NCBI GenBank assembly: GCA_963730185.1
Contig: CAVSQW010000007.1
Location: 384,001 to 448,000, forward strand
Reading direction: 5' to 3'
DNA length: 64,000 bases
DNA from: an uncultured Gemmatimonadales bacterium
GTDB taxonomy: Bacteria > Gemmatimonadota > Gemmatimonadetes > Gemmatimonadales > GWC2-71-9
Shown: positions 46,586 through 64,000 of the stretch, one piece after another
Layout: every line of letters begins with the position of its first letter
Position numbering within the stretch: the first letter of the stretch is position 1
Notes under the pieces: generated by a model
What the model was told of the DNA's origin: nothing
What the model saw: the letters and a program-made list of their open reading frames with translations, nothing else
The model's database searches: none
Translations under genes and position numbers: made by a program

Positions 46586-46679
46586 AGCGCGAATATACGG
46601 CCGCTCGACGGCCGCGGTATGTTTACTCCATGCTTCGCCTGGTTCCTCCCTTCCTTTCTCCCCTCTCGAACTGCGTCTC

Positions 46680-48873: not shown

Positions 48874-49584
48874 TCAGTCGAGAAGGGCCGTCAGCGGGCG
48901 AAAGCGATACCCCGCCTCCCGGGCGTCGCGAATGATGTCGGGCAGGGCCCGAGCGGTCGGGGTCCGGTCTCCGTCGGGGTCGTAGCCGTCGCCGTCGTGC
49001 AGCAGGATGATGGCGCCGGGCCGGAGCCGGTGGCGTACCCGCTGGCGGATCTCGGCGGCGTCGATCGGGTCGGAGTCCCAGACCCCGAAGGTCCAGCCGA
49101 AGGTGCGATAACCCAGCCGGCGGGTGGCTCGGCTCACGAACGGGTTCCGATATCCGTGGGGAGCCCGGAACGCCCGGGGGGCCCGACCGGTCACGTCCGC
49201 GATCGTGGCGTGGGCCCGGTCCAGCTCGCTCGCGATTCGCCGGGGCCCGCTCCAGTGCAGCTTGACGTGGGTGGTGGTGTGGTTGCCGATCAGGTGGCCC
49301 GCCTCCGTTGCCCGCCGGGCCAGGGCGGGGTGCCGCTGCACGAAGTTGCCCACCATGAAGAAGGCCGCCGGCACGCCGGCCTCCTCGAGGGCATCGAGCA
49401 CGGCCGGCGTGGCTCGTCCGTTCGGCCCGTCGTCGAACGTGAGATAGAGCTCCCGGCGGCGCGGTCCCCGTCCCACCACTGGTCCCACCAGCGAGGCGTT
49501 GGGGTAGTAGATCCCGAGCGCGGCCGCCCCGGCCGCGGTGGCCGCCCCGGCCGCGGTGGCCGCCCCCACCAACGTTCCAATCAT
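48874..49584 (-). CDS. NodB-type polysaccharide deacetylase with N-terminal anchor
   Basis: TFDDGP, NHTTTH, RAPHG, LLHDG. Confidence 0.9.
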   Translation of the reverse strand: MIGTLVGAATAAGAATAAGAAALGIYYPNASLVGPVVGRGPRRRELYLTFDDGPNGRATPAVLDALEEAGVPAAFFMVGNFVQRHPALARRATEAGHLIGNHTTTHVKLHWSGPRRIASELDRAHATIADVTGRAPRAFRAPHGYRNPFVSRATRRLGYRTFGWTFGVWDSDPIDAAEIRQRVRHRLRPGAIILLHDGDGYDPDGDRTPTARALPDIIRDAREAGYRFRPLTALLD

Positions 49585-50702
49585 GCCGCGATCGCGGGGC
49601 GGTGGTGGGGCGAGAGGATCCGCTCGTAGACCGCGACGAGGCGGTCGGTCACCCGCGGCCAGGCATAGGGCAGGGCCGCGGCCCGGGCGGCGGTGCTCCG
49701 GGCGGACCACTGGAGCGGTTCCGCCGCCAACCGGGTGACGGCGTCCGCCCAGGCCCCGGCATCGAGCGCCGGGACGTAGCTGGCGTTCGGGCCGGCCACC
49801 TCCCGGAAGGCGGGGAGGTCGGAGACTACCGCCGGGGTCGCCGACGCGAGCGCCTCGAGCAGGGTGACTCCGAACGAGGCCCGGCGCGTGGGGCAGAGAT
49901 AGAGGTGCGCCCCCCGATAGAGCGCCGGGCGTTCCTCGCGCACGGCCCCGAGAAAGCGGACCGGCAGGCCGCGGGCCTGCCCTTCGTAGCGGCGCCGCCA
50001 GGGGCCGTCGCCGGCCACGGTCAGCTCGACCCGGGGCCATCGCGCCGCGATGGCGGGCATCGCCTCCAGGATCGTGTCCAGGCCGTTCCGTGGCTCGAGC
50101 CGACCCAGGAAGAGCAGCCGCAATGCGGCGCCGGGTTGGGGAGGGCGCCGCCGCCTGCCGGGATGGAACGCCGTGACGTCGATCCCGTTCGGGATGATCT
50201 CCCAGGGCGCCCGGAAGTAGCGGCTCATCGCCTCGATCGCGGCGCTGCTCACGGCGACCGTGGCGGCCAGGCGGTCCAGCCGGGCCTGCAACGGCCGACG
50301 GAACACCGCATAGCCGACCGACTGCGGGAACCAGGTATGGAAGGTGGCCATCGCCGGCAGGCCCAGTCGCTCGGCCACGGTGGGGGCGGCCAGGCCGAGC
50401 ACCGGGCTCAAGCCGCCGTGCACGTGCACCAGCTCGGTCCGGGTCTCGCGGAAGACCTGCGCTAGCTGATCGCCGAGGCGCCAGCCGGTGGTGATCCGGG
50501 CAACGCCGCCGTTGGCGTAGATCACCAGGCTGGTGCCCACCCGCCGCACATGGGGTGGATCGGCGCGGACGTGCCGCATCTTCGCGGTCACGATGGTCGG
50601 CTGGTGTCCCCGGGCGGCGAGCTCGAGGGCCAGGTGATGAACGTGTTCGGGCACGCCTCCCAGCTGCGGGTAGTAGTCCTCAGCGACGAGGGCGATGCGC
50701 AT
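49581..50702 (-). CDS. GT4 glycosyltransferase (PimA-like)
   Basis: YYPQLGGVPEHV, IPNGID, LFLGRLEPRNG, ASFGVTLLEA. Confidence 0.88.
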   Translation of the reverse strand: MRIALVAEDYYPQLGGVPEHVHHLALELAARGHQPTIVTAKMRHVRADPPHVRRVGTSLVIYANGGVARITTGWRLGDQLAQVFRETRTELVHVHGGLSPVLGLAAPTVAERLGLPAMATFHTWFPQSVGYAVFRRPLQARLDRLAATVAVSSAAIEAMSRYFRAPWEIIPNGIDVTAFHPGRRRRPPQPGAALRLLFLGRLEPRNGLDTILEAMPAIAARWPRVELTVAGDGPWRRRYEGQARGLPVRFLGAVREERPALYRGAHLYLCPTRRASFGVTLLEALASATPAVVSDLPAFREVAGPNASYVPALDAGAWADAVTRLAAEPLQWSARSTAARAAALPYAWPRVTDRLVAVYERILSPHHRPAIAA

Positions 50703-51609
50703 CGGCCCCTCCAGGGTGAGCAGGGTCGTTCCCGGCCAGGGGGAGCGACGCGATCAGTCGTTCGACGGAGGCGACCACGGCGTCGGGTCGCTCCTCATGG
50801 ATGTAGTGGCCCACGCCTGGCAGCGAGTCGACGGCGAACGAGGGAAGCTCCCGGTCCATCAGGGCGACCTCGCTCGAGTCGACGCCGCCGTCGTGCGGCG
50901 CCTCGCCGACGATCAGCCGGACCGGGCAGTGGATTCGAGGGAGCTCCGGCGCCAGTGAGTCCGGCTCGTGGGAGTGACCCATGGCCTTGAAGGCGCGGAT
51001 GGTCGCGCCCAGGTCACGGGTGGCGCCGTCGGTGTAGCCCGCGACCACCGAGTCGGTGACCCAGGTCGGGTTCCCGGACGATGCCTGGAGCATGCCGCGG
51101 ATCCGGGACCGGACGAAGCCGCGCCCCAGGAGCCGGATCACCGGGGCGAGCTTCATCGCCCGGCGGAAGCCGGCCGTGGTGGCCTGCTCGGTGGGCCCGC
51201 CCTCGAGGCTCACCACCCCACGGACCAGGTTAGGATGCCGGACCGCCAGCCGGAGGGCGATCGCCCCGCCCAAGGAGTGCGCGATGACGACGGCCGGGCC
51301 GAGGCCGAGAGTGTCGAGCACGGCGGCGATCAGGTCGCTCTGGGTCGCGAGCGAGTAGTCGCCGTGGCTCGGTCGCGAGGAATAGCCGACGCCCAGGGGC
51401 TCGATGATCACCGCCCGGAACCCGGCGGCCTGAAGCAGCGGGACCACCCGGCGAAAGCCGAACGCGGAGCCGAAGAGACCCGGGATCAGCACCACGGCGG
51501 GGCCGGTGCCGACGCTCACCACGTGCAGGGTGTCGGGTGGGTCGGGCGCGGTCGACGACGCCAGGGTCGGCTGGATCAGGGCCAGCGCCAGCAGCGCGGC
51601 CCGAATCAT
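50680..51609 (-). CDS. Exported alpha/beta hydrolase
   Basis: Signal peptide, AHSLGG nucleophile elbow, [11 protein letters not shown]. Confidence 0.85.
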
Positions 51610-52235
51610 CGCGCCACCTCGGCCCGGCGCTCGGCTGCCTCGAGCGCGGCCGCTCGCGAGGCGACGGTGTCGAAGTCGCCGTCCAGTCCGTCCATCCGGT
51701 GCTGGAACTGGATGTCGGCCCGGAGCAGGCCGAGCACGTAGGCGGTGAGGTTGACCCAGAAGACGATGGCAAAGAGCGTGGCGAAGGGCCACCAGAGTCC
51801 GAAGTAGAGGACCACCCGCTTGGCGCCGAGGTCGATCCGGGAGCGGTCCACCACGGTGGTGAGGAGGAGGATCGCAACCAGGGCCAGGGCGATGAGCTTG
51901 ACCGGCGCGAGCCCGGCGACGGCGCAGCCGGCGAAGATCACCGCCTCGCTGGCCCGGTCCAGGCGGGTGTCGAGCCGGTGACCCTCCGGACTCGCCAGCC
52001 CGAACTCCCGGGCAATGCCGCCGTCGAGCCCGTCCAGTAGCTGGCCGAGCGCCATCAATCCGAGGCCGAGGTCGAGGCGGCCGAGCGCGATCGCGCCGCC
52101 GGCCAGGACACTGGCCCCGAACGCCGCCCAGGACACCTGGCCGGGCGAGAGCCCGAGCCGGACATGGAGGAGGTTGAAGAGCGGGCGTTGGGCCCGGTCT
52201 ACGACCGACTGAAGAACAGGAAGAGATTCGAGCAT
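51606..52235 (-). CDS. CDP-alcohol phosphatidyltransferase family (short)
   Basis: DGLDGGIAR...G..LDTRLD signature. Confidence 0.85.
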
Positions 52236-52636
52236 AGGAGGATCGCCGCGAGGACGCCTTCCTTGGCCCCGTCAGGCAGGACACTGATCCAGCCGCGGGT
52301 CACGTGAGTGGAGTATGGGTACCAGGGCATCTTCTCATAGCGGACGGCGTAGTCCATCGCGAGGTGGATTGCGAAGAAGATGGCCGGCACCAGGGTGCCG
52401 ATCATGAGGCAGATCGGGAGGATCCAGAGCAAGGCCACCGGCTCCTGCAAGGAGGAGCGCCAGTAGTAGCCGCGCTTGTCGCGGAGTCCCACGGCCTTGA
52501 GGTAGAACGGTGCCTTGATGACGTGATCGATGTCGACCCCGACCCCGAACCCATAGGCGAGCACGGCGTCGGTGCCGTGGAGGCCGAGGATCTTGACGCC
52601 GAGGGTGGTGGCCAGGACGTGAGTGAAGATCGTCAT
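52199..52636 (-). CDS. Small membrane-bound putative metal-dependent hydrolase (YdjM-like)
   Basis: FTH, DIDH, IHLAMD in hydrophobic context. Confidence 0.55.
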
Positions 52637-53646
52637 GGGGTCGTGCTCTCGAGGGGGACGGAGGCCGGGACCGGGCGACGGCCGCCGACCCAGATCAGGA
52701 GGAGCCCGGCGGCGATCCAGAGGAGATCGCGCGCCCGCCCGACCACCGCGGCGTAGAGCCCGAGGCTCGTCGGGTAGCCGAGCTGCTGGAAAAGGAGCAG
52801 GGTGGCCCCCTCGCGGGTGCCGAGCTCGAAGGGCACGATGAAGAGCAGGTTGCCGACCAGTCCTTCGAGTCCCGAGACGACAAAGGCGTCGAGGTAGCCG
52901 ACGGCGTGGCCGGCGCTCGCCCCGATCAGGCAGAACTCGAGCGCGATGACGCACCGGCTGAGGAATTCGTACGCCACGGCCGCCCGGAAGCGCCCCGGCC
53001 GCTCGTGATAGAACGCGACGATCTGGCGGTCCATCGCGAGGATGGCGTCCTGATGCGGGTCGAGCCGGCGGGCCAGCCGGCGGAGCCCCGGCACCCGGCC
53101 GGCCCAGCCGATCACCCGGGCCACCACGCCGTCCCGGTGGGCGGCGAGGAGCAGGATGATGAGGGCCGAGACCAGGAACAGCGCCGCGGTGAGCAGCAGG
53201 AGCCAGGTGACGGTGTAGGGCAGCAGCACGAACCCGAGCCCGACCGCGAAGAGCCAGAGGAGCAGCAGGCCCAGGGTCCGTACCATGGTGTGGAGCACCA
53301 CCGAGGCGGTCGCCCGCGACGTGCCGGTCCAGGGAGCGAGCGCCGCGATCTTGTAGGGCTCGCCGCCGGCGTTGACCATCGGCGTGATGTAGTTGATCGC
53401 GGTTCCGGCGACGACCGTCGCCAGGGTCCGTCGAAAGGCCGGTCGGGCCGGCTCGTCGGCCAGGATCGTGTGCCACGCCGCGGCGTCCAGGACGTGGACC
53501 AGTCCGTACAGGGCCAGGATGGGAACGATCATCCAGCCCGTCCGCCGGGCGTCGACCAAGAGGTCGCCTCCGCCGGCGGCTCGGACCACCAGCAGGAAGA
53601 GCGCGAGGCCTCCCAGAAAGAGCGCCAGCCGGACCCGGCGGCTCAC
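52633..53646 (-). CDS. Lysylphosphatidylglycerol-synthase TM / flippase-like protein
   Basis: INYITPMVNAGGEPYK, PFELGTREG; multi-TM. Confidence 0.85.
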   Translation of the reverse strand: MSRRVRLALFLGGLALFLLVVRAAGGGDLLVDARRTGWMIVPILALYGLVHVLDAAAWHTILADEPARPAFRRTLATVVAGTAINYITPMVNAGGEPYKIAALAPWTGTSRATASVVLHTMVRTLGLLLLWLFAVGLGFVLLPYTVTWLLLLTAALFLVSALIILLLAAHRDGVVARVIGWAGRVPGLRRLARRLDPHQDAILAMDRQIVAFYHERPGRFRAAVAYEFLSRCVIALEFCLIGASAGHAVGYLDAFVVSGLEGLVGNLLFIVPFELGTREGATLLLFQQLGYPTSLGLYAAVVGRARDLLWIAAGLLLIWVGGRRPVPASVPLESTTP

Positions 53647-54680
53647 GCGGCTGCGCCTCGGGCGCGGGCCCGAACCCGGCGCCGCGGGCGGGACCGTCCG
53701 TATCCCCCTTCGAGCACCGTGGCGACCCGCTCGATGTCCTCCAGCGGGCCGTCGGCGTCGCCGGTGTCGAGCCGGCGGACGAAGTCGGTGAACAGGTCGG
53801 CGAACCAGTGCCGGTACGATGCCTTGTCGAGCTGCGCCGTGAAGTCGAGGGACTCGACGGCGCCGTCGGCCGCGAGCTGGAGCCGGCCGCCCTCCCAGGA
53901 GATGGTGCCCCGGTCGCCGACGAAGCGAATCCGGGTCTCCCGATGATGGGCCGCCCAGGTGAGAAAGAGCACGGCCAACCGGTCCGGGTAACGCATCACC
54001 AGATGGGCGGTGTCCTCCACGTCATAGTCGGCATGGCGAAGGCGGGTGGTCCATCCGTGGATCGCGCCGGGGGGGCCGGCGACGTCGAGCACCTCGTAGA
54101 TCAGATGGGTCCCGTGGTCGAGCAGCACCCCGCCGAGACCGCCCGCCCGGGTGGCCCGCCAGGGGACCGGGGTCGGATCGGCCCCGCGGTCGGCGTGCAG
54201 GCGGTACACCGTGAACTCGGCCAGCGACCAGTGGCCGATCGCGCCACCGTCGAGCCAGGCCCGCACCTGCCGCCAGGCCGGGTTGAACCGGTACTGGTGG
54301 CACGGCATCACCACCCGCCCGGCTCGGCGGGCCGCCTCGGCGATGGTCCGGGCGTCGTCGGCCGCGATGGCGACCGGCTTCTCGCAGAGCACGTGATAGC
54401 CCTGGTCCAGCGCCCAGAGCGTAAGCTCGAGGTGGGTGGCCGTGGGGGTGCAGATGTCGACGAAGTCGATTGGACCGAACCGGTCGATCGCCGTCCGGGT
54501 CGGGACGACCTCGAGGCCGTCGACCACCTGGCCCGCCGGCAGAGAGGCATCGACCGCTCCGACGATGTCGATCCGGTCGTGGGGTGACGGGCCCCGCCGG
54601 AAGCCCGGCAGGTGGGCGGTCCGCGCCACGTTGCCCAGACCGATGATGAGGCCGCGATAGCGACGAGGTTCAGCCGGCAT
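53643..54680 (-). CDS. Gfo/Idh/MocA oxidoreductase
   Basis: IGLGNVA, CEKP, GGVLLDHGTH, VED. Confidence 0.9.
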   Translation of the reverse strand: MPAEPRRYRGLIIGLGNVARTAHLPGFRRGPSPHDRIDIVGAVDASLPAGQVVDGLEVVPTRTAIDRFGPIDFVDICTPTATHLELTLWALDQGYHVLCEKPVAIAADDARTIAEAARRAGRVVMPCHQYRFNPAWRQVRAWLDGGAIGHWSLAEFTVYRLHADRGADPTPVPWRATRAGGLGGVLLDHGTHLIYEVLDVAGPPGAIHGWTTRLRHADYDVEDTAHLVMRYPDRLAVLFLTWAAHHRETRIRFVGDRGTISWEGGRLQLAADGAVESLDFTAQLDKASYRHWFADLFTDFVRRLDTGDADGPLEDIERVATVLEGGYGRSRPRRRVRARARGAAA

Positions 54681-55560
54681 AGGCCGCGCTTTCGCTGGGC
54701 TCGGTGTCGAGCAGCAGGCGGACGCCGCGCTCCTGCCGAACGATGAGCATGAGGAGAACCAGGTTGAGCGGCCCGATCGCCACCCAGAAGTAGGAGGCCG
54801 GCCAGCCCGGCACGGCCGTCACGGCCAGGAGCGCGAACCGCACGTTCTGCGCGATCAGCGCCCCGGCGACGACGACCGGCCGGGCCAGCGCGCGGTACCC
54901 GTCGTTCGGGAGGCTCGACCCCGGTTGGGTTCGCCAGCGCCGGACCAGCTCCGTCGTGGCGGGGAGGAGTCGAACTTGACGCTGCACGTACCCGGCGTAG
55001 CTGCGGTAGGCCAGGCCGGCCCAGAAGCCGGTCGGCCCGGTCCCGAGATCCTCGGGCAGGTCGAGCTCGCCGGTCCCGGCGCCGCCGAAGCGGAGGTAGA
55101 CCTGGCGGAGGAAGTCGATCGCGCTGGCCTGAAGGGAATGACTGATGCCGGCCGCGATCACCAAGACCACCGCGGGCCACCCGGCCCCGGCCAGCAGCAG
55201 CCGAACCAGGAGGTGCAGGTAGAGGTTGAGGAACCGAAGGTTGTCGGAGAGCCCGTCCAGCACCCGGCCGAACCGGGTGCCCCCGCCCCGGATCCGGGCG
55301 ACCTGGCCGTCGGCGCTGTCGAGGACGTCGGACACCACGAAGAGGGCCAGGCCGAGCGCGCCGAGCCGCCAGTCGTCGTAAAGGAAGAGGTGGCCGGCCA
55401 CCAGGCCCACGGCCAGGGATGCCAGCGTCACCTGGTCCGCCGTCACCCGGGTGGCGGCGAGGCCCCGCGCGAGCCGGTAGCCGACCGGGCGGAAGAAGTG
55501 GAGGTCGATCCAGTCCTCCACCGCGTCGCCCTTAGCCGCGAGCGCGTTCGGCGGCTTCAA
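54670..55560 (-). CDS. CDP-alcohol phosphatidyltransferase family (long)
   Basis: DVLDSADGQVAR...GRVLDGLSD signature; start approximate. Confidence 0.88.
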   Translation of the reverse strand: MKPPNALAAKGDAVEDWIDLHFFRPVGYRLARGLAATRVTADQVTLASLAVGLVAGHLFLYDDWRLGALGLALFVVSDVLDSADGQVARIRGGGTRFGRVLDGLSDNLRFLNLYLHLLVRLLLAGAGWPAVVLVIAAGISHSLQASAIDFLRQVYLRFGGAGTGELDLPEDLGTGPTGFWAGLAYRSYAGYVQRQVRLLPATTELVRRWRTQPGSSLPNDGYRALARPVVVAGALIAQNVRFALLAVTAVPGWPASYFWVAIGPLNLVLLMLIVRQERGVRLLLDTEPSESAAYAG

Positions 55561-56866
55561 GGAGCACCTCCTTCATGATCCCCAGCGCCTCCATCGCCTC
55601 GGCTTCCCGGATCACCAGGGGCGGATTGAGGCGCACTTCGGGATTGTAGATCATCGCCAGCACGCCCCGGCGGAGCAGGGTGTCGAAGATCCAGCGGGTC
55701 TCGGGCTTGGCCAGGGGCGCGCCGGTGTCCGGATGGACCAGGCTCATCCCGAGCAGGAGGCCCCGGCCGCGAGCCCGGCGGACGATCGGGATCTCCCGCT
55801 CCCACCGGGTCAGCTCGTCGAGCATCAGGCCGCCCAGCCGGCGGCTGTGCTCCACCAGACCCTCGTCGAGGATGGTCTCGATCGTGACCCGGGCGGCCGC
55901 GGCGGCCATCGGGTTGCCACCGTAGCTCGACGAGCTGCCGCTCGGGTTGGCCCACGGCTTGGCGAAGGCAACCGACTCGCGGATGATGATGCCGCTCATC
56001 GGGAAGCCGCCGCCGAAGCCCTTGCCGACCAGGATCATGTCCGGGACGATGCCCTCGTGCTCGACCGCGAACATCCGGCCGGTCCGGCCGAACCCGGTGA
56101 TCATCTCGTCGCAGATCAGGACCGCGCCGAGCTCGTCGGCCAAGGCGCGGAGCTGGGCCAGGTAGCCGGGGGGCGGCACGATGTTGCCGGCCGTGCCCTG
56201 AATCGGCTCGACCAGAATGGCCGCCAGGTCGGCGGTGGTTTCGAGCGCCAGCTTCTTCCGCAGAAAGTCCACGCAGTGCCAGGCGCAGGAGGTCGGCTCC
56301 TTGTCGAAGGCGCAGCTGGCGCACGACGCGTAGGGCGACGAATAGGTGCCCGGCATCAGGGGACCGAGGGCGTGCTTGAAGTCGCCGCTCAGGAGGGGCA
56401 GGACGCCGCCGGTCTTGCCGTGGAAGCCGCCCCAGAAGCCGACCACTTCCGTCTTGCCGGTGTAGGCCTTGGCCAGCCGGATGGCCGCCTCGACCGCTTC
56501 GGCGCCGCTGGAGTAGAGCTGGGTCCGGTTCAGGTCGCCGGGCGCGAGCTCGGCCAGGAGACGGACCAGCCGGGCTCGGTTCTCGGTGGTGAAGCTCCCA
56601 ACGTGGACCCGCCCCAGCTGGCGGGCCATGGCCTCCACGTACCGCGGGTGGGCGTAGCCCAGACTGGCGACCCCCACGCCGGCCAGGAGGTCGATGTATC
56701 GGTTCCCGTCCACGTCCCAGAGCAGGGCGCCTTCGCCCCGGTCGATGCTGAGCTGGCTGTAGAGCGCCACGCTCTGCGTCCCGGGGGCGAGGTGCCTGGC
56801 CTCGTCGGCAAAATCGCGGGCCGAACGGGGGCCGGGGAGCTGAAGATCGAGCAACGGTTGAGCCAC
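55532..56866 (-). CDS. Class-III PLP aminotransferase
   Basis: DVDGNRYID, SGAEAVE, FHGKT, DEMITGFGRTG, GKGFGGG. Confidence 0.92.
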   Translation of the reverse strand: MAQPLLDLQLPGPRSARDFADEARHLAPGTQSVALYSQLSIDRGEGALLWDVDGNRYIDLLAGVGVASLGYAHPRYVEAMARQLGRVHVGSFTTENRARLVRLLAELAPGDLNRTQLYSSGAEAVEAAIRLAKAYTGKTEVVGFWGGFHGKTGGVLPLLSGDFKHALGPLMPGTYSSPYASCASCAFDKEPTSCAWHCVDFLRKKLALETTADLAAILVEPIQGTAGNIVPPPGYLAQLRALADELGAVLICDEMITGFGRTGRMFAVEHEGIVPDMILVGKGFGGGFPMSGIIIRESVAFAKPWANPSGSSSSYGGNPMAAAAARVTIETILDEGLVEHSRRLGGLMLDELTRWEREIPIVRRARGRGLLLGMSLVHPDTGAPLAKPETRWIFDTLLRRGVLAMIYNPEVRLNPPLVIREAEAMEALGIMKEVLLEAAERARG

Positions 56867-56871
56867 CGGAG

Positions 56872-57696
56872 TTACTCCTGCGCGAAGAGACGGAGAAAGC
56901 GGTGCGCGATGGCGTCGGCTGCGGCCTCGCGCACGGGGGCATAGCTGGGCCAGTCGTTCATGTCGATCAGGATCGGATCGTCGAACGATGGAAACGCGGC
57001 GTCGCCGCCGAAGGCCTCGAGTCCCAGCACCTCGGCGGCGCGGAACGCGACCCGGGCCAGCGACGCGATGTCGGGCCGCGGCTGATCGTCGGGGATCGGG
57101 GCGGCCGGGTAGGCATGGAAAAAGGGCGTGCCCCGGACGCCATAAAACTTGAGCACCGGACCACCGACGTGGGCCTGCAACGCGACCGTCGCGATCCCGC
57201 GATGGGCAAACCCGGCGACGGCCGGCGCGAGCCCCGCCAGCGGCACCGAGACGACGTCCTCGGCCGACTGGGCGTGCACGTCGCCTCGCTTGACCCAGAC
57301 CGGCGCCCCGTCGCGCGCCAGCTCGAACGGGAAGCGAGTGTGGTCATGGCCCGGGCCGATGAGGATGGTCTCGGGAAACGGGAGGCCGGCCCCGGTCAGG
57401 AGCTCGACCAGACGGGCCCGATGACAGTTGAGCACCCCGTCGGCCGGGTTCAGCACCGGGGTACGGTTGGGGTCGAGGTCGGCTAACCGCCGACTGGCGA
57501 GCGGTCCCTGGCACATGTTGAGATAGCCGTCGGCCTTGGGCAGCCGGCCGGCCTCGATCTCGATCTCGGAGCTCCGCTGGACCTCGTGGCCGTCGGCTTC
57601 GACCCGGGTCACGACCGCGTCGAGGATGGCGGCATCGTTGTCTCGGTGGCGGCCGGGGGAGAAGGACGGGTTCCGGTACAAGGCGGCGAGTCGCAT
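56872..57696 (-). CDS. ATP-grasp fold enzyme
   Basis: VLNP, WVKRGD, LQAHV, LKFYGV, LGLEAFGGD, IDMNDWPSY. Confidence 0.75.
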   Translation of the reverse strand: MRLAALYRNPSFSPGRHRDNDAAILDAVVTRVEADGHEVQRSSEIEIEAGRLPKADGYLNMCQGPLASRRLADLDPNRTPVLNPADGVLNCHRARLVELLTGAGLPFPETILIGPGHDHTRFPFELARDGAPVWVKRGDVHAQSAEDVVSVPLAGLAPAVAGFAHRGIATVALQAHVGGPVLKFYGVRGTPFFHAYPAAPIPDDQPRPDIASLARVAFRAAEVLGLEAFGGDAAFPSFDDPILIDMNDWPSYAPVREAAADAIAHRFLRLFAQE

Positions 57697-57699
57697 GGC

Positions 57700-58401
57700 T
57701 CAGCCCCGGGGCTCGGAGGCGACGAGCGCCTCGGCGACGATCAAATTGCGGCGCCGATCGAGATCGACCATCTGGGCGACGTCGACGGTCTCGACCCGGG
57801 CGCCGAGGGAGAGGAGGCGGCGGAGGAACTCGCGCATCCGCGTCGCGCCGGCCGCGACGGCCACGGCCGCCTCGGCGCGGATGGTCGGACTGAAGGCGTA
57901 GACGCCGCCGGTGACCCAGGCGCCGGCGTCGGCATGGTCTTCGAGCGCCGCCACCCGGCCGGCCTTGCCGAACCGAACCGCCAGCGGCGACTCGTCGGTG
58001 CCCGAGGGCGTGATGGCCAGGACCACGTCGGCGCCGGCCGTCACGGCCCGGTCGGCGACGCCATAGACCCGCTCCCAATCGGCCCGCGCCATCACGGTAT
58101 CCACCATCGAGCAGAAGACCGGCCCGGCGCCCACCGCCTCGATCCCGAGGGCGAGCGTGTGGAGCGAGCCGGGCGTGTCGCAGGGAATGACGTGGACTCC
58201 GGCCCGACTCCGGAGGACGGCTGGAATCGGGACTCTCGCGCGGAGCAGGCAGGTGACGTCGCTGCAGCCGAGCGCCAGGAACTGGGCGGCGAGTCGGACC
58301 AGCTGAGGCTCGCCGCCGATGGGAACCAGCGCTTTCGGGGTCGCGATCCCGTCGTCGGCCAGACGCCGGCCTTCGCCGCCGGCCAGGATCAGACCGCGCA
58401 T
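57700..58401 (-). CDS. Nucleotidyltransferase (NTP_transferase)
   Basis: ILAGGEGRRL...PKALVPIGG, VD, DLD. Confidence 0.88.
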   Translation of the reverse strand: MRGLILAGGEGRRLADDGIATPKALVPIGGEPQLVRLAAQFLALGCSDVTCLLRARVPIPAVLRSRAGVHVIPCDTPGSLHTLALGIEAVGAGPVFCSMVDTVMARADWERVYGVADRAVTAGADVVLAITPSGTDESPLAVRFGKAGRVAALEDHADAGAWVTGGVYAFSPTIRAEAAVAVAAGATRMREFLRRLLSLGARVETVDVAQMVDLDRRRNLIVAEALVASEPRG

Positions 58402-59081
58402 CGGGCCTCGATCATTCGGGGCAGCTCCGTCAGGCTCGCGATCCGGAGGTCGGTTACCCCGAGGGCGGGCCAGGGACGGGCGTCGGGGGCAAGCCAACAG
58501 GCGGTGAGGCCGAGCGCGGCGGCCGGCCGGACGTCGGCGTCGAAGTTGTCGCCGATCATCCAGGTGCGGTCGGGGGCGGCGTCCAGCTGGCCGATGGCCC
58601 ACTCGAAGATCCCGAGCGAGGGCTTGGCGATGCCCAGGCGCCCGGAGTCGGCCGCCACCTCGAAGAGAGAAGCCAACCCGAGCTCGGCCAGACAGGGGCT
58701 CAGATTCCCGCTGAAGTTGGAGATCACGCCGAGCCGGTGGGTGTCCCGAAGCCGGGTCAGGATGTCCCGGTTGCGGCGAGCGTGCCGGCGGGCGCCGTCC
58801 ACGACCCGCCGGGCCACCCGGTCGGCCAGGGCGGGCGGGGTGGTCTCGAGGTCGGCGGCCAGCCAGGCGGCTTCCCGGAACACCATGCTGGAGAAATCGG
58901 CCTCATGAATGCCGGCCCACTCGAGCAGAGCGCGATCGGCGGCCCGGAAGCGGGCCGCGAAGTGCTCGGGCGGGACGACGATGCCTTCGGCGCTGAAGGC
59001 GCGATGGAACTGGACGCTCGAGGGAACGCCGTCGGCGTCGAGCGTGCCGCCGAAGTCGAAGAGAAGAACGCCACGGGTCAT
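58389..59081 (-). CDS. HAD-superfamily phosphatase
   Basis: FDFGGTLD, ISN, KP, IGDNFDAD. Confidence 0.9.
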   Translation of the reverse strand: MTRGVLLFDFGGTLDADGVPSSVQFHRAFSAEGIVVPPEHFAARFRAADRALLEWAGIHEADFSSMVFREAAWLAADLETTPPALADRVARRVVDGARRHARRNRDILTRLRDTHRLGVISNFSGNLSPCLAELGLASLFEVAADSGRLGIAKPSLGIFEWAIGQLDAAPDRTWMIGDNFDADVRPAAALGLTACWLAPDARPWPALGVTDLRIASLTELPRMIEARCAV

Positions 59082-59095
59082 GGTGGCGCGGGAGG

Positions 59096-59109
59096 GCAAT
59101 CGCTATGCC
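59096..59109 (-). promoter_or_regulatory. Sigma-54 -24/-12 promoter
   Basis: Minus strand GGCATAGCGATTGC = GG-N10-GC, 14 nt upstream of the HAD ATG. Confidence 0.75.
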
Positions 59110-59206
59110 CTGGGCGTCCGGGGCCGCCGGCGGCGGCTTAACTCGTTGCGGAGTACGACGAAGGCTCACATGACCGGGGCATGAAGGCCTGGGAGCGATC
59201 ACCCGG

Positions 59207-59251: not shown

Positions 59252-60619
59252 TCAGGTGGACCCGCCAGGCCAGTCGCGATACTCCTCCATCTTCCGATAG
59301 AGGGTCTTACGATCCAGGCCCAGCAGCTCGGCCGCCCGGGTCTTGTTCCCACCAGTCTCCCGGAGGATCTCCAGGATGTAGAGGCGCTCCACTTCCTCGA
59401 GCGGCAGGTGGCGCCGCGCCGCACCGGTGAGCATGGTGCCCACGTTGCCGGATTGGCGGATCCGCTCCGGCAGGTGCTCGGCGCCGATCGGCTGCCCCTG
59501 GGCGAGCCAGGCGGCCCGGATGATGGTGTTCCGGAGCTCCCGGACGTTGCCCGGCCACGGGTAGCCGACCAGCAGATCCATCGCGTCGGCGGTGACGGTC
59601 TGGGGTGGGGCGTGGCCGGGATCGATGGCCGCCCGCTCCAGAAAGTGGGCCGCCAGCACTGGGATCTCGGTCGGTCGCTCTCGGAGGGGAGGCAGCTGGA
59701 GGGTGAGGACGTTGAGCCGCCAGTAGAGGTCGTCCCGGAATCGGCCCGCCTCCACCTCGGCCTCGAGGTTCCGGTTGGTGGCGGCCAGCAGCCGGACGTC
59801 GATGGGATGCTCGTGGGTGGCGCCCAGTGGCCGGATCTCGCCCTGCTCGAGCACCCGGAGCAGCTTGGGCTGCAGGGCGAGGGGCAGCTCGGCGATCTCG
59901 TCGAGCAGCAGCGTGCCTCCGTGGGCCACCTGGAAGAGCCCTTCTTTGGCGCGGTCGGCGCCGGTGAAGGCCCCTCGCTCGTGCCCGAAGAGCTCCGATT
60001 CCAGCAACGTCTCGGGCAGGGCACCGCAGTTGACGGTGACGAACGCCGCCCGACCCGAAAGGCGGTGCAAGGCGCGCGCGACCAGCTCTTTCCCGGTGCC
60101 GCTCTCACCGGTGATCAACACGGCGTGGGGCAGGCCCGCGCTTCGTCGGACCAGCTCGTAGAGCCCCAGCATCGGGGGACTGGTCCCGATGAACTCGATC
60201 GGCACCGCGGTCTGCTGGCTTCGGGCCGCGCGGGCGGCCTCGCGGCGGGGACGGCTTTCCGCCAGGGCGCGGGCCACCGTGGCGAGCAACTCGTCCGTCC
60301 CGAGCGGCTTGGTCAGGTAGTCGTACCCGCCGGAGCGGACCAGGTCGATCGCGGATTCGATCGACCCGAACGCGGTCATCACGATGACGTTGATCTCGGG
60401 GCAGCGGGTCCGGACGATCCGGAGGAGGTCGCGCCCGCTGCCGCCCGGCATGATCAGGTCGGTCAGCACCAGGTCCACCCCATCGCCCCGGGTCAGGGCC
60501 GCCTCGGCCGCGTCCGCTCCCGGGAAGGGGAGCACGGTGTGGCCGGCGTGGGCCAGTACCTCGACCAGTAGCTCGCGCAGCTCGCGGTCGTCCTCCACCA
60601 CCATGATCCGGTCAGGCAT
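59252..60619 (-). CDS. Sigma-54-dependent response regulator (NtrC family)
   Basis: REC (VEDD, TDLIMP), GESGTGKE, intact GAFTGA, WPGNVREL, Fis HTH. Confidence 0.95.
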   Translation of the reverse strand: MPDRIMVVEDDRELRELLVEVLAHAGHTVLPFPGADAAEAALTRGDGVDLVLTDLIMPGGSGRDLLRIVRTRCPEINVIVMTAFGSIESAIDLVRSGGYDYLTKPLGTDELLATVARALAESRPRREAARAARSQQTAVPIEFIGTSPPMLGLYELVRRSAGLPHAVLITGESGTGKELVARALHRLSGRAAFVTVNCGALPETLLESELFGHERGAFTGADRAKEGLFQVAHGGTLLLDEIAELPLALQPKLLRVLEQGEIRPLGATHEHPIDVRLLAATNRNLEAEVEAGRFRDDLYWRLNVLTLQLPPLRERPTEIPVLAAHFLERAAIDPGHAPPQTVTADAMDLLVGYPWPGNVRELRNTIIRAAWLAQGQPIGAEHLPERIRQSGNVGTMLTGAARRHLPLEEVERLYILEILRETGGNKTRAAELLGLDRKTLYRKMEEYRDWPGGST

Positions 60620-62081
60620 CGGCAGGCGGGGCCGAAGCCCCCTCCGCCATCGGGAACTCGAGTCGGAAGCAGGCGCCGGCCTGCTCCTCCGGCTCGAGGG
60701 TCAGCCGGCCGCCGTGCTCTTCGGCCACCCGACGGGCCACCGCGAGTCCCAACCCGGTCCCCTGCGGCTTGGTCGTGTAGAACGGGCTGAACACCTGGGC
60801 GGCCGAGTCGGCGGGGACGCCCGGTCCGCTGTCGACCACTTCCACCTCGACCCGCCGGTCCCTCGCCCGGCCCCGAATCAGGATGGTCCGCTGCTCGGAG
60901 CTGGCCAGCTCCATCGCCTGGCTCGCGTTCATGAGCAGGTTCACGAACAGTTGATGGAGGAGGTCGGGATCGCCCCGGATCAGGAGCGGGCCTTCCAAGT
61001 CGCGGTGCACGGTGACGCCGGTTCGCTCCAGTTCGGTGTCGAGCAGGGCCATGGCTCCGTCGACGACCTCGGTGACGTCGATCTCTCGCAGCTTGGGCTC
61101 CCGCCGCTTGGCGAAGTCCAGGAGGTTCCTGACGGTCCTGGTGATCCGGCTGATCTGGCGGATGATGATCTGGAGGTGGCGCTCCTGAACCTCGGGTCCC
61201 GAGGGAGTGCGAAGCATCATCTCGGCCCGGCCGGAGATCACGTTGAGCGGCGCGGCGACCTCGTGGGCCAGGCCCGCGGCCAGGTTGCCGATCTCGGCCA
61301 TCTTCTCCGCTTCTCGCAGCCGTCGCTCGAGCGCGATCCGATCCTCCACCTGATGAGCCGCCTCGGCCCGCGCCACCTCGAGCCGCTGGGCCATCCCGTT
61401 GAACTCCCGGGCGATCTCCTCCATCTCGGCCCCGCTCGGGCCCTCCGGAATCCGATACGAAAGGTCGCCACCGCCGACCGTCCGGGCCGCCACCGCCAAC
61501 CGCGCCATGGGTCGAGAGACCACCCGGCGGACCAGCCAGAGGGTGACCAGCGTCACGGCCACCAAGAGCGAGACGGTGTTGAGGAGGAAGCGCAGTCGGA
61601 GCGCGTCGAGCTGATCGCCGATGAACGAGATCCGTTGGGCGACCTCCAGCACGCCGACCGGATGACCGGCCCGGCCCCGGAGCGGGCGGAGGACACTCAG
61701 CACCAGCTCGTCGCCGAGCTCGCGGGTGACGGTGCGCTGGCGTCCGGTGGTCAGCACCCGCTGAAGCACGGCGAGGGGCGCCGAGCCGGCCGACCGCTGA
61801 GGGTCGGCAGCGTAGGCCTGACGCCCGGTGCTGTCGTAGACGATGACCGCGTACACGCTCGGCTCCCGCTTGAGCGCGTCGACGATCGGGCCGATGTCGC
61901 TCGGCGTGGCCGCCGTCCGGTCGACCACCAGCCCGAGCACGGTGGCGTAGGCCGCGAGCCCCTGCTCGACCTGCGGTTGGAGCGTCCCCTCGCTCTCGAG
62001 CAGGGCCCAGACGGCGTACGCCACCATGATCAGGGTCACGGTCGGCAGCAGCGAGAGCAGGAGGCGCGTGCTGAGCTTCAT
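60612..62081 (-). CDS. HAMP-domain sensor histidine kinase
   Basis: Two TM segments, [36 protein letters not shown]. Confidence 0.93.
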
Positions 62082-62212
62082 GGCGTGCGCGGGATCATCT
62101 CCGGTGGCGGTCGGCTCCGCAAGGGTCGGCCCGGAGGGCCGCCCGCTTGTTCCGGCCGGCCGCCCCCCTGTCGACCCTGCGGCCGGCCGGTGCCCTGACC
62201 ATATTCCGGGCC

Positions 62213-64000
<1,788 letters not shown>

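Follow-up and report, generated by a model that had tools for sequence, protein, structure and literature searches.

A conserved modular gene cluster of Gemmatimonadales predicted to make an inositol-type membrane lipid

Overall organization of the cluster

Twelve genes in a 64-kb stretch of DNA (the window) form a conserved modular set that is predicted to build a CDP-activated head group of the inositol type. We propose, with somewhat better than moderate confidence, that one ring hydroxyl of this head group is likely exchanged for an amine, that a phosphodiester joins the head group to ceramide and/or diacylglycerol as the membrane lipid alcohol, and that a PimA-like glycosyltransferase and a NodB-type deacetylase then decorate it. 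The route, for which we infer chemistry, substrates and products alike, is best read as a Kennedy-type one leading from CDP-inositol to an inositol phospho(sphingo)lipid that is both aminated and glycosylated. The present analysis established the order and families of the genes, how far they are conserved, which of them are fused and what surrounds the cluster.

The twelve co-oriented open reading frames occupy 48874–59081 of the minus strand (to 59099 with an alternative start of g01) (Table 1). If the most likely start of each gene is taken, adjacent genes overlap by 4–37 nt or are separated by 2–5 nt, which bears out the overlapping or near-abutting arrangement described in the first-pass annotation; relatives show the same spacing. 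Ten of the twelve family assignments made at that time were confirmed by Pfam and the ATP-grasp assignment by fold (Z 20), and the membrane hydrolase was matched weakly, as a YdjM-like protein. The host is a soil Gemmatimonadales bacterium.

Table 1. Features of the gene cluster and its upstream region.
Feature	Position	Strand	Assignment	Basis
g01	58389..59081	-	HAD-IA hydrolase, REG-2-like	Pfam Hydrolase (HAD) 1.2e-12
g02	57700..58404	-	Nucleotidyltransferase, MobA-like/NTP_transferase	Pfam NTP_transf_3 6.6e-15
g03	56872..57696	-	ATP-grasp enzyme, unannotated	Fold of AlphaFold model
g04	55532..56866	-	Class-III (omega-type) aminotransferase	Pfam Aminotran_3 9e-89
g05	54670..55560	-	CDP-alcohol phosphotransferase 1, AF2299/DIPPS/PIPS-like, 296 aa	Pfam CDP-OH_P_transf 7.9e-10
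g06	53643..54680	-	Gfo/Idh/MocA NAD(P)-dependent oxidoreductase	Pfam GFO_IDH_MocA 2.8e-16 + 2.4e-20
g07	52633..53646	-	Flippase-like membrane protein, LPG_synthase_TM/HpnL-like	Pfam 3.8e-27
g08	52199..52636	-	145-aa membrane protein, invariant His/Asp, possible YdjM-like metal-dependent hydrolase	Homologue alignment
g09	51606..52235	-	CDP-alcohol phosphotransferase 2, PIP-synthase-like, 209 aa	Pfam CDP-OH_P_transf 1.1e-8
g10	50680..51603	-	Alpha/beta-fold hydrolase	Pfam Abhydrolase_1 9.1e-27
g11	49581..50702	-	GT4 glycosyltransferase, PimA-like	Pfam GT4/Glyco_trans_1_4 5.4e-28
g12	48874..49587	-	NodB-type (CE4) deacetylase	Pfam Polysacc_deac_1 2.2e-34
Promoter-like element	59096..59110	-	Sigma-54-type -24/-12-like element, GGGCAT-N5-TTGC	Pattern match, 2 mismatches; 15 nt upstream of g01 ATG
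Response regulator	59252..60619	-	NtrC-type, sigma-54-dependent, directly upstream	Pfam Sigma54_activat 7.5e-65, Response_reg, HTH_8
Sensor kinase	60612..62228	-	Histidine kinase, HAMP-HisKA-HATPase, overlaps regulator gene	Pfam

Conservation and modular architecture

A search for g03 relatives in species-representative genomes gave 330 places, and the best 80 loci were examined; 78 of these carry Gemmatimonad names, one is from Eisenbacteria and one is unnamed. Of the 54 Gemmatimonadales loci long enough to hold the g01–g07 core, 52 have it collinear on one strand, an arrangement far from chance. The gene-neighbourhood comparison suggested earlier thus confirms conservation as a unit, with a modular composition: g08 and g09 accompany the core in 41/54 loci and g10–g12 in 16/49. 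The aminotransferase and the dehydrogenase are strictly joint (17 full loci with both, none with only one), and their genes always flank that of the CDP-alcohol transferase.

Gene fusions recur among the relatives. The g02+g03 fusion was found in seven representative clusters, next to HAD+nucleotidyltransferase+g03, g03+HAD and g03+CDP-alcohol phosphotransferase fusions, while seven of nine long relatives are g05+g06 fusions, of which three retain both halves in full. These fusions tie the HAD protein, the nucleotidyltransferase and the ATP-grasp enzyme together and, separately, the transferase and the dehydrogenase.

Activation of the head group

The nucleotidyltransferase g02, with its GxGxR motif intact in the translation, is predicted from its sequence to be the cytidylyltransferase for the head-group phosphate. 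Its profile is closer to sugar-1-phosphate nucleotidyltransferases in the PDB (mannose-1-phosphate guanylyltransferase, 1.5e-8; glucose-1-phosphate cytidylyltransferase, 5.4e-8) than to IPCT (2xme, 1e-3), the matches covering mostly the N-terminal loop alone. No match to g03 was found in Pfam or NCBIfam, and its family comprises 1227 representative clusters. The AlphaFold (AF2) model of g03 (pLDDT 88.4) gave VIA-align Z scores of 20.2 with a RimK-domain protein, 20.1 with LysX/ArgX and 17.3 with ITPK1. As ligases (RimK, LysX, Ddl; Z 19–20) score slightly higher than inositol-phosphate kinases (Z 16–17), a kinase role is not favoured over a ligase role, and g03 is, judging from the model, an ATP-grasp enzyme that may act as either. 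The HAD protein g01 matches NCBIfam DREG-2 under the cut-off (5.3e-18). Its motif I, D-F-G-G-T, has no counterpart of the second Asp found in classic phosphatases, and D(F/Y/M)GGT occurs in 56/58 homologues; without this general acid/base (Asp+2) a phosphatase role is doubtful. The start of g01 at ATG 59081 agrees with homologue starts; the open reading frame list gives TTG at 59099.

We propose that inositol 3-phosphate is supplied by the genome's own myo-inositol-phosphate synthase (MIPS), and that the soluble trio g02, g03 and g01 would convert it to CDP-inositol. The favoured idea is that kinase activity of g03 and phosphohydrolase activity of g01 would move the phosphate to another position, or salvage it, ahead of cytidylylation, which we liken to the kinase–phosphatase–nucleotidyltransferase logic of ADP-heptose synthesis. 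Rather unlikely, in our estimate, is another order to the same product, in which myo-inositol freed by the HAD protein would be oxidized by g06, transaminated by g04, re-phosphorylated by the ATP-grasp kinase, cytidylylated and transferred. This order mirrors the opening of streptidine biosynthesis (phosphatase, dehydrogenase, aminotransferase, kinase) and gives each of the seven core enzymes a role; g06 is closest to free-cyclitol/sugar dehydrogenases, and the nucleotidyltransferase+ATP-grasp and HAD+nucleotidyltransferase+ATP-grasp fusions suit a soluble sequence. However, the 26 full loci without the aminotransferase/dehydrogenase pair still have the ATP-grasp and HAD genes, so the role of these two is independent of amination. 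The recurrent fusions of the dehydrogenase, moreover, are with the membrane transferase and not with soluble enzymes, and the missing Asp+2 of the HAD protein also argues against this order.

Inositol as the head group

Sequence comparison places g05 and g09 closest to inositol-phosphate enzymes (AF2299, PIP synthase, archaetidylinositol-P synthase and DIPPS), and DxxDGxxAR..G..D..D is intact in both translations. NCBIfam matches, all under cut-off, are archaetidylinositol phosphate synthase (1.2e-12) and PIP synthase (1e-10) for g05 and archaetidylinositol-P synthase (2.7e-13) for g09; in the PDB, g05 matches 4o6m (4.1e-10) and 6h53 (2.1e-8), and g09 matches 6h53 (3.5e-5). That g09 is a recent copy of g05 was ruled out (BLASTP E 0.3).

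In other phyla, the core cluster adjoins MIPS with or without the aminotransferase/dehydrogenase pair. Of 33 full metagenome loci of low or mid GC content, in which the sequence extends 6.5 kb or more past g03 on the downstream side, 22 contain MIPS; the aminotransferase is present in seven, all of which also hold the dehydrogenase and MIPS, and the dehydrogenase is absent from all 26 others. One locus (L095) is a contiguous same-strand run of MarR, nucleotidyltransferase, MlaE, MlaF, MlaD, g03, aminotransferase, CDP-alcohol phosphotransferase, Gfo/Idh/MocA, HAD and MIPS. MIPS was absent from the window and from 10/10 full high-GC loci. The window's genome encodes MIPS (contig C15), paired with a PIP-synthase-like gene, outside the cluster; since 378/401 genomes of the phylum contain MIPS, its co-occurrence there is uninformative.

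The pair-less form matches the "putative alternative inositol lipid cluster" proposed, though not proven, for Phocaeicola vulgatus/Prevotella (Heaver 2022, cited here from the part of the article available). Human-gut contigs show the same order, g02-g03-g05-g07-g01 near MIPS, and a gut g03 homologue shares 94% identity with a protein of Phocaeicola vulgatus; g03 is present in the Phocaeicola-type cluster. In that part of Heaver 2022 no mention was found of the unannotated ATP-grasp gene of the alternative cluster. A CDP-inositol lipid route is reported for Rhodothermus marinus (as cited in PMC4587543). The Gemmatimonadales set is likely an expanded form of the gut Bacteroides pathway, itself only proposed; the earlier view that the full combination is not a characterized pathway needs the correction that its backbone has precedents.

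Amination of the ring

The sequence of g06 places it near scyllo-inositol and other ring-hydroxyl dehydrogenases (PDB 3e82, 1.8e-21; scyllo-inositol dehydrogenase 5ya8, 3.3e-15; NCBIfam levoglucosan dehydrogenase and IolG, under cut-offs), and its EKP and DxxxH motifs are intact in the translation. The aminotransferase g04 is the best-conserved gene of the set (median identity 76% in the best 80 loci) and is of the GABA/putrescine type (7vno, 3.5e-70), whereas the known inosose aminotransferases are, to our knowledge, of the DegT/StsC class. We propose that g05 transfers phospho-inositol to the lipid and that, at or next to this step, g06 would oxidize a ring hydroxyl and g04 transaminate the ketone, giving an inosamine head group.

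It is unlikely that the ring escapes amination, the product being a plain IPC- or PI-like inositol-phosphate lipid that is glycosylated afterwards and the pair serving ring epimerization or an amino compound elsewhere in the lipid. The atypical aminotransferase class, the frequency of the pair-less form (26/33 full low/mid-GC loci) and its link to inositol phosphoryl-dihydroceramide (Heaver 2022, in the part available) fit this alternative. Its weak point is the pair itself, which occurs only jointly and is encoded on either side of the transferase gene, with the dehydrogenase fused to the transferase. Oxidoreductase plus transaminase is the standard route from C-OH to C-NH2.

Lipid acceptor, export and decoration

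The flippase-like g07 (TIGR00374, 47.9 bits; cut-off 43.2), the Mla transporter within L095 and the MMPL genes next to many cluster loci support a lipid product rather than a solute. The lipid carrying the head group is probably a sphingolipid or a glycerolipid. Twenty of the best 80 loci are flanked by putative genes of ceramide synthesis (Spt-like, GNAT-type, SDR and PAP2_3), the best family for the Spt-like gene being NF047600 (518.7 bits, under the cut-off of 640); in L105, Spt, GNAT, the cluster and MIPS all lie on one strand. The GNAT gene occurs in 48/49 g03-positive genomes, and in one family where it is rare (f2, 13/93) all five g03-positive genomes carry it about 4–8 kb away. Ceramide is thus a likely lipid partner that the earlier reading lacked. 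Ceramide genes were found in the available flanking sequence of none of the 17 twelve-gene loci, so the acceptor here may be diacylglycerol; the window's genome has a ceramide-type block on a separate contig (C8), with the Spt-like gene split over at least three frames.

These surroundings also make a non-lipid product very unlikely, be it a soluble phosphodiester of the di-myo-inositol-phosphate type or phospho-inositol on a capsule or other envelope glycan. The best solved relatives of g05 do include AF2299 and DIPPS, nucleotidyltransferase plus CDP-alcohol transferase plus phosphatase is the logic of DIP synthesis (IPCT/DIPPS), and inositol is present in the Bacteroides capsule (Heaver et al. 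2022, in the part available). Nevertheless, the core holds a flippase-like gene, lipid transporters (Mla, MMPL) and ceramide-type genes lie in or beside the cluster, the solved relatives of the PimA-like glycosyltransferase act on phosphatidylinositol, and the hosts are, by record names, soil and gut mesophiles.

For the membrane lipid, we propose that g07, or in relatives Mla/MMPL systems, carries it outward, and that g08 and g09 would use CDP-diacylglycerol for a second product, of the PIP-synthase type. For g08, two of 11 homologues matched YdjM (best E 0.0013) and Atlas neighbours are YdjM-like at 0.95; no relative was found in the PDB, and its AF2 model is of low confidence (pLDDT 55). 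The g10 hydrolase has an intact GHSLGG motif in translation, and its N-terminus resembles a signal peptide in the window and is equivocal in relatives.

Over its full length (residues 1–362) g11 matches PimA (4n9w, 2e-38; 2gej, 2.3e-38), the next chain being 25 orders of magnitude worse (3e-13). We propose that g11 glycosylates the cyclitol and that g12 (NCBIfam NodB 4.6e-40, under cut-off; TFDD and HxxxH intact in translation) removes an acetyl group. PimA uses GDP-mannose, on which no deacetylase would be expected to work, a point against this reading. The NodB homologues of 17 relatives start about 12 residues ahead of the domain and have no signal peptide or membrane helix, which gives no support to the first-pass annotation that the lipid is edited outside the membrane. 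Its core idea (activation, amination, lipid attachment, glycosylation and flipping) is supported by MIPS in the cluster of other phyla, the PimA-like GT4, the inositol-type transferases, the lipid transporters and the putative ceramide genes.

Upstream region

The NtrC-type gene is a possible regulator of the cluster, in the present sub-lineage only. Homologues with 61–62% identity lie upstream in four related loci (L009, L010, L017 and L025), and a similar sigma-54-type element occurs at the same position in 4/4 related loci with an NtrC-type gene upstream; the window-wide count of the pattern is at chance level. The rpoN gene was not found in the window's 81.8%-complete assembly; of 12 genomes from this genus, 11 carry it.

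Organization of the operon and its gene families

The operon comprises twelve open reading frames (g01-g12) on the minus strand, in a region with a G+C content of about 70-75% throughout. With best-guess start codons, each junction is an overlap of 4-37 nt or a gap of 2-5 nt, and this spacing is repeated in the relatives. No sigma-70-like promoter was found inside the operon, and the terminator-like sites are weak and lie within coding sequence only. Between the stop codons of the last gene and of a neighboring S9-family peptidase gene there are 46 nt.

The family labels of the first-pass annotation largely held: ten of the twelve were confirmed by Pfam and the ATP-grasp label of g03 by fold, and the membrane hydrolase label of g08 stood weakly (YdjM-like). 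For g08 no PDB relative was found at E up to 5, and the AF2 model is poor (pLDDT 55). The equivalog matches in NCBIfam were all sub-threshold. The two CDP-alcohol phosphotransferases g05 and g09 exceed the Pfam cut-off for this family, and their top NCBIfam scores are archaetidylinositol-phosphate and PIP synthases. Both carry the motif D-x2-D-G-x2-A-R...G-x3-D-x3-D, as DSADGQVAR..G..D..D in g05 and as [12 protein letters not shown] in g09. The catalytic motifs of the transferases, the dehydrogenase, the nucleotidyltransferase, the hydrolase and the NodB protein are intact in the translations. The flippase-like g07 matches LPG_synthase_TM in Pfam (3.8e-27), and a counterpart is present in gut-type loci as well.

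Locations of the features discussed
Feature	Location	Strand	Context
Window	G000:C7:384001-448000		contig C7 of its own genome, G000
Operon g01-g12	window, 48874-59081	-
S9 prolyl-oligopeptidase-family gene	window, 46482-48827	+	PD40/DPP-IV beta-propeller repeats; convergent with operon end
Gemmatimonadota locus without g07 match	L047:5093-8616		upstream: OmpR-type two-component system, endonuclease/exonuclease/phosphatase-family protein, PepSY protein
MlaE-MlaF-MlaD lipid ABC transporter	L095:6497-8987		low-G+C locus; between nucleotidyltransferase and ATP-grasp genes, in place of the flippase-like gene
Tandem g03 pair	L090 and L100, about 8.1-9.8 kb		low-G+C metagenome loci; ahead of aminotransferase gene
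Spt-like gene of own genome	C8:463294-464496		split across at least three frames
Spt-like gene			flanking block; NCBIfam serine palmitoyltransferase NF047600, 518.7 bits, best family, below cut-off 640
GNAT-type gene, 369 aa			flanking block
SDR/epimerase gene			flanking block
PAP2_3 gene			flanking block, often present

Conservation and modularity of the cluster

A word-indexed search with g03 revealed 481 homologues at E<=1e-3. Species-representative genomes contain 330 relatives, and the best 80 of these 330 loci comprise 78 Gemmatimonad-named ones, one from Eisenbacteria and one unnamed; relatives bear Gemmatimonadales names. The twelve window proteins were compared with these 80 loci by tblastn. 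In agreement with the first-pass annotation, which had read the genes as one operon, the set is conserved as a unit: of the 54 loci with room, 52 carry all of g01-g07 in the same order on a single strand. The two exceptions, L047 and L058, lack a g07 match alone. The g08-g09 pair follows in 41 of 54 loci and g10-g12 in 16 of 49 (17 of 80 overall), and two loci (L075 and L086) have g10-g11 without g12. The aminotransferase g04 is the most conserved protein, with a median identity of 76%.

Of 401 genomes sampled evenly across the phylum, 49 have g03, and these belong to just two families (43/166 and 5/93, versus 0/141 elsewhere). The distribution is also patchy within genera, with one positive among six other genomes of the window's own genus. 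Therefore, the cluster is accessory and modular. The 401-genome tallies used here (g03, GNAT and myo-inositol-phosphate synthase, MIPS) include one genome flagged as unpublished (G157), on which no claim depends. Beyond the phylum, a g03 profile retrieved 1227 representative clusters (403 at E<=1e-30) among 1.84 billion proteins, and a metagenome scan gave 591 g03 relatives; 80 of their loci were retained. In a quick tree of 90 g03 rows, rooted at the midpoint, one group consists of 39 rows from loci without an aminotransferase gene, six of them from loci too short to classify (SH-aLRT 93). A second group holds 14 of the 15 low-G+C rows with an aminotransferase (91), and a third the high-G+C rows (99). 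Since the tree has no root other than this midpoint, the order of gain and loss cannot be set.

Comparison with known systems

The full combination had been put forward as matching no characterised pathway. Its backbone does have a precedent, the putative "alternative inositol lipid cluster" of Bacteroides (Phocaeicola) vulgatus and Prevotella (Heaver et al. 2022, PMC9246714), which is itself uncharacterised; what stands of the claim is that no report of the modules beyond this backbone was found in the literature searched. As described there, that cluster comprises an NTP transferase, a CDP-alcohol phosphatidyltransferase, a HAD hydrolase, a nearby LPG-synthase homologue and MIPS, for which a Kennedy-type CDP-inositol-to-lipid logic was proposed. 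The window shares the clustered NTP-transferase (g02), CDP-alcohol phosphotransferase (g05) and HAD (g01) genes, assigned by Pfam, and the LPG-synthase-like g07. In contrast, the cluster as described in that paper has neither the aminotransferase/dehydrogenase pair (g04, g06), nor the g08-g09 pair, nor the module of PimA-like glycosyltransferase, NodB deacetylase and hydrolase (g10-g12), all of which are found in the window. The ATP-grasp gene is without mention in the same description, whereas it is present in both the window and gut contigs; MIPS is adjacent in the Heaver cluster and not adjacent in Gemmatimonadales. By tblastn, the order g02-g03-g05-g07-g01 occurs on many human-gut contigs with 21-33% identity to the window proteins, and a gut homologue of g03 shares 94% identity with a protein of Phocaeicola vulgatus. 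The Phocaeicola-type g03 has 4527 relatives at E<=1e-30, and all named ones are "hypothetical". The operon is real and conserved, and it represents an uncharacterised version of a type of system already known.

In Rhodothermus marinus, the three genes for MIPS, a cytidylyltransferase (IPCT) and a CDP-alcohol-type synthase (BEPIS) reportedly form one operon-like unit that provides CDP-inositol as head-group donor for a lipid, with a dialkylether glycerol as acceptor (Jorge et al., as cited in PMC4587543; also mentioned by Heaver et al. 2022). Unlike the window, this route as described there includes neither an ATP-grasp or HAD gene, nor an aminotransferase or dehydrogenase, nor any glycosylation module. 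The first-pass annotation had pointed to the IPCT/DIPPS logic, in which a nucleotidyltransferase and a CDP-alcohol phosphotransferase are followed by a final phosphatase. The g05 protein indeed matches the DIPPS domain and AF2299, but the likeness to IPCT/DIPPS itself is weak. Its best solved relatives are AF2299 (4.1e-10), PIP synthase (2.1e-8) and DIPPS (4mnd, 0.014). The g02 profile matches IPCT in its N-terminal loop only (2xme, 1e-3; 4mnd, 3.6e-3), and sugar-1-phosphate nucleotidyltransferases score better. Moreover, the product in hyperthermophiles is a soluble solute, whereas the present cluster is accompanied by genes for lipid transport and lipid synthesis.

The arrangement of g09 and g11, one gene apart, resembles the mycobacterial pgsA1-...-pimA operon. 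The early steps of phosphatidylinositol-mannoside (PIM) synthesis offer counterparts in the PIP synthase PgsA1 (g09) and in PimA (g11), but identity is modest and a PatA-type acyltransferase is absent. In contrast to PIM, the acceptor here is probably an aminated cyclitol lipid, and the NodB deacetylase suggests that the sugar added by g11 is an N-acetyl-hexosamine rather than mannose.

In the streptidine and rhizopine routes, a Gfo/Idh/MocA dehydrogenase and then an aminotransferase convert a cyclitol hydroxyl to an amine, bracketed by a phosphatase and a kinase. The aminotransferases of these pathways are of the DegT/StsC type, whereas g04 belongs to class III, and the window has no amidinotransferase or antibiotic-type genes. 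In addition, its product would be placed on a lipid by the CDP-alcohol transferases.

Three other assignments were rejected. Matches to hopanoid proteins fall below their cut-offs (HpnL, 83.6 bits against 195.65; HpnA, 152 against 367.65), and the neighbors are of Spt/GNAT type with no hopanoid genes. For a phosphonate lipid of the PntC type, the match to 6pd1 is just 1e-3 and no PEP-mutase-like gene is among the twelve. Thermus and Deinococcus make a glyceroyl-alkylamine phosphoglycolipid, and no result pointed in this direction.

Link to inositol

The window's own genome has one MIPS gene, on contig C15, beside a PIP-synthase-like CDP-alcohol transferase gene. Within the phylum, MIPS is near-universal (378 of 401 genomes, and 46 of the 49 with g03), so its co-occurrence with the cluster is uninformative there. 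MIPS is absent beside the cluster in the window and in all 10 full high-G+C loci.

The decisive evidence for the link comes from loci outside the phylum. Of the low- or mid-G+C metagenome loci, 33 extend at least 6.5 kb beyond g03 on its downstream side, and 22 of these have MIPS inside the locus. The aminotransferase occurs in 7 of the 33, every time with both the dehydrogenase and MIPS, and none of the 26 loci lacking it has the dehydrogenase. One low-G+C locus (L095) shows an unbroken same-strand run of MarR, nucleotidyltransferase, MlaE, MlaF, MlaD, g03, aminotransferase, CDP-alcohol transferase, Gfo/Idh/MocA, HAD and MIPS genes. The aminating add-on of dehydrogenase and class-III aminotransferase is found in several lineages, with MIPS always alongside or in the genome.

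The solved relatives of other window proteins point the same way. PIP synthase is the best match of g09 (6h53, 3.5e-5). Over its full length (residues 1-362) g11 matches the phosphatidylinositol mannosyltransferase PimA at 2e-38 (4n9w) and 2.3e-38 (2gej), the next chain scores 3e-13, and PimB' and MshA rank lower. The dehydrogenase g06 is close to scyllo-inositol and other ring-hydroxyl dehydrogenases.

The ATP-grasp and HAD proteins

No Pfam or NCBIfam profile matched g03. Its AF2 model (pLDDT 88.4, pTM 0.88) has Ddl, RimK and ArgX as top Foldseek matches. Superposition by VIA-align gave a Z score of 20.2 to the RimK-domain protein 5i47 (rmsd 3.0 over 243 aligned residues), followed by LysX/ArgX (20.1), Ddl (19.1), ITPK1 (17.3) and PPIP5K2 (16.7). 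The match to RimK-domain, LysX and Ddl structures spans residues 1-274, and 37 diverse family members share invariant residues including K and D-x-N. The predicted fold clearly places g03 in the ATP-grasp superfamily. A profile search against the PDB gave AtITPK4 at 0.032 and RimK-type proteins at 0.06-0.35, and neither this search nor Foldseek nor VIA-align separates kinase from ligase. In the many clusters without an aminotransferase, g03 would not be an amine-acylating ligase. Therefore, a kinase role is favoured for g03, while the comparison of modelled structures lends it no support over a ligase.

Motif I of g01 reads D(F/Y/M)GGT in the window, as it does in 56 of 58 homologues. It retains the nucleophile Asp, but Asp+2 is replaced by Gly, and the HAD-phosphatase motif DxDx(T/V) with its Asp+2 general acid/base is absent from these proteins. 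By its sequence g01 is therefore no textbook phosphatase. A transferase role was speculated for the HAD of the alternative cluster (Heaver et al. 2022, PMC9246714).

Gene fusions indicate how the core divides. Among the best 150 of the 1227 g03 representatives, seven are fusions of nucleotidyltransferase and g03, including one from Planctomycetota and a Thermoanaerobaculia cluster that has several members of 523 aa. One each joins HAD, nucleotidyltransferase and g03 (Elusimicrobiota), g03 and HAD, and g03 and CDP-alcohol transferase (four full-length members). Seven of nine long g05 relatives are g05-g06 fusions, and in three of these neither half is truncated. Two loci (L070 and L082) provide DNA-level counterparts of the two protein fusion types. 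Thus, a soluble trio of HAD, nucleotidyltransferase and ATP-grasp protein can be distinguished from a membrane-proximal pair of transferase and dehydrogenase, flanked by the aminotransferase gene. The trio also occurs without the amination pair. In two database proteins (P0252 and P0417) a histidine-kinase module is joined to g03 or g05, which may be true sensor fusions or errors of gene calling.

Probable lipid acceptor

The product of the cluster is probably a lipid and, in many hosts, a sphingolipid. In addition to the flippase-like g07 of the core, relatives carry lipid transporters, either Mla within the operon (L095) or MMPL beside the cluster. A four-gene ceramide-type block abuts the cluster in 20 of 80 genome loci and, by coordinates, in 19 of 49 positive genomes. 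Work on Caulobacter reportedly defined Spt, an N-acyltransferase (bCerS-type GNAT) and a reductase (CerR-type SDR) as a bacterial ceramide set. In one locus (L105) Spt, two GNAT genes, the cluster and MIPS all lie on one strand. The GNAT gene was found in 243 of the 401 sampled genomes and in 48 of the 49 with g03. In one of the two g03-bearing families (f2) it is rare (13/93), yet it lies within about 4-8 kb of g03 in all five g03-positive genomes, four of which share one genus and are thus not independent.

Three observations speak against a sphingolipid in the window's own genome. The block is not in the window; the own-genome copy is on contig C8, where the Spt-like gene is split and the neighboring GNAT, SDR and PAP2 genes look whole. 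The split gene is either a pseudogene or a product of assembly indel errors, the assembly being 5.27 Mb in 17 contigs and 81.8% complete. In addition, none of the 17 twelve-gene loci has the block within the flanks examined. Therefore, the anchor may be diacylglycerol in the PimA-bearing sub-type.

Proposed pathway

Based on these comparisons, the soluble trio g01-g02-g03 would supply CDP-activated inositol, from which g05 would move phospho-inositol onto a lipid alcohol. A ring hydroxyl would be converted to an amine by g06 and g04, at or beside the transfer step. The lipid would be moved outward by g07 or by dedicated transporters. The g09 protein with the translationally coupled g08 may be a PIP-synthase-plus-hydrolase pair for the diacylglycerol version. 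The cyclitol would be glycosylated by g11, and g12 would remove an acetyl group. The first-pass annotation had placed the editing outside the membrane, which is unsupported, as the NodB homologues show neither a signal peptide nor a membrane helix; the window's g12 copy has an extra Ala/Gly-rich hydrophobic N-terminus.

We put forward, tentatively, that the product may be an undescribed lipid class, a glycosylated amino-inositol (inosamine) phospho-ceramide or phospho-glyceride, in whose synthesis the ATP-grasp protein and the Asp+2-less HAD would be the enzymes so far missing, making inositol phosphate ready for activation with CTP. Inositol lipids and sphingolipids of bacteria are increasingly recognised as parts of the envelope and as signals to the host. 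If the proposal is true, the lipid would be zwitterionic and would correspond, in bacteria, to the glycosyl-inositol-phosphoceramides of plants and fungi and to the GlcN-inositol core of GPI anchors, and an amino-inositol product would mean new head-group chemistry and an altered membrane charge. The ATP-grasp and HAD proteins, also found in thousands of gut Bacteroidales, would then complete a bacterial Kennedy-type inositol lipid pathway. The "alternative" CDP-inositol route of 2022 is an unproven proposal, to which the present analysis adds a conserved, unannotated ATP-grasp member. In soil Gemmatimonadales the route is coupled to ceramide-type genes; the window adds a PimA-like glycosylation module, with a sigma-54-type two-component system as the possible regulator. 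Direct tests of each step would take only a few recombinant enzymes and a single lipidomics experiment.

The literature searched, which did not extend to subscription journals or bioRxiv supplements, yielded no account of the aminotransferase/dehydrogenase add-on, the ATP-grasp member, the Asp+2-less HAD, the g08-g09 pair, the PimA-like/NodB module or the association of Gemmatimonadales with ceramide genes. Nor did the search turn up any report on Gemmatimonadetes sphingolipids, inosamine phospholipids or a follow-up of the alternative cluster; Gemmatimonadetes are not mentioned in PMC11334938 or PMC11087976.

Putative regulation

The operon is immediately preceded by genes for a histidine kinase and a regulator of the NtrC type, and a GG-N10-GC element is located 15 nt before the g01 ATG. 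The sigma-54 pattern occurs 38 times in the window against 42 expected, which is chance level, so that only the conserved position of the element counts. It is found at the same position in all four related loci with the regulator (L009, L010, L017 and L025), and matches lie elsewhere in two other loci among the 72 examined. Neither Sigma54_DBD nor Sigma54_CBD of rpoN was found in the window's own 81.8%-complete assembly, though the window encodes a sigma-54-dependent activator. Among 12 further genomes of this genus, all but one (11) contain Sigma54_CBD.
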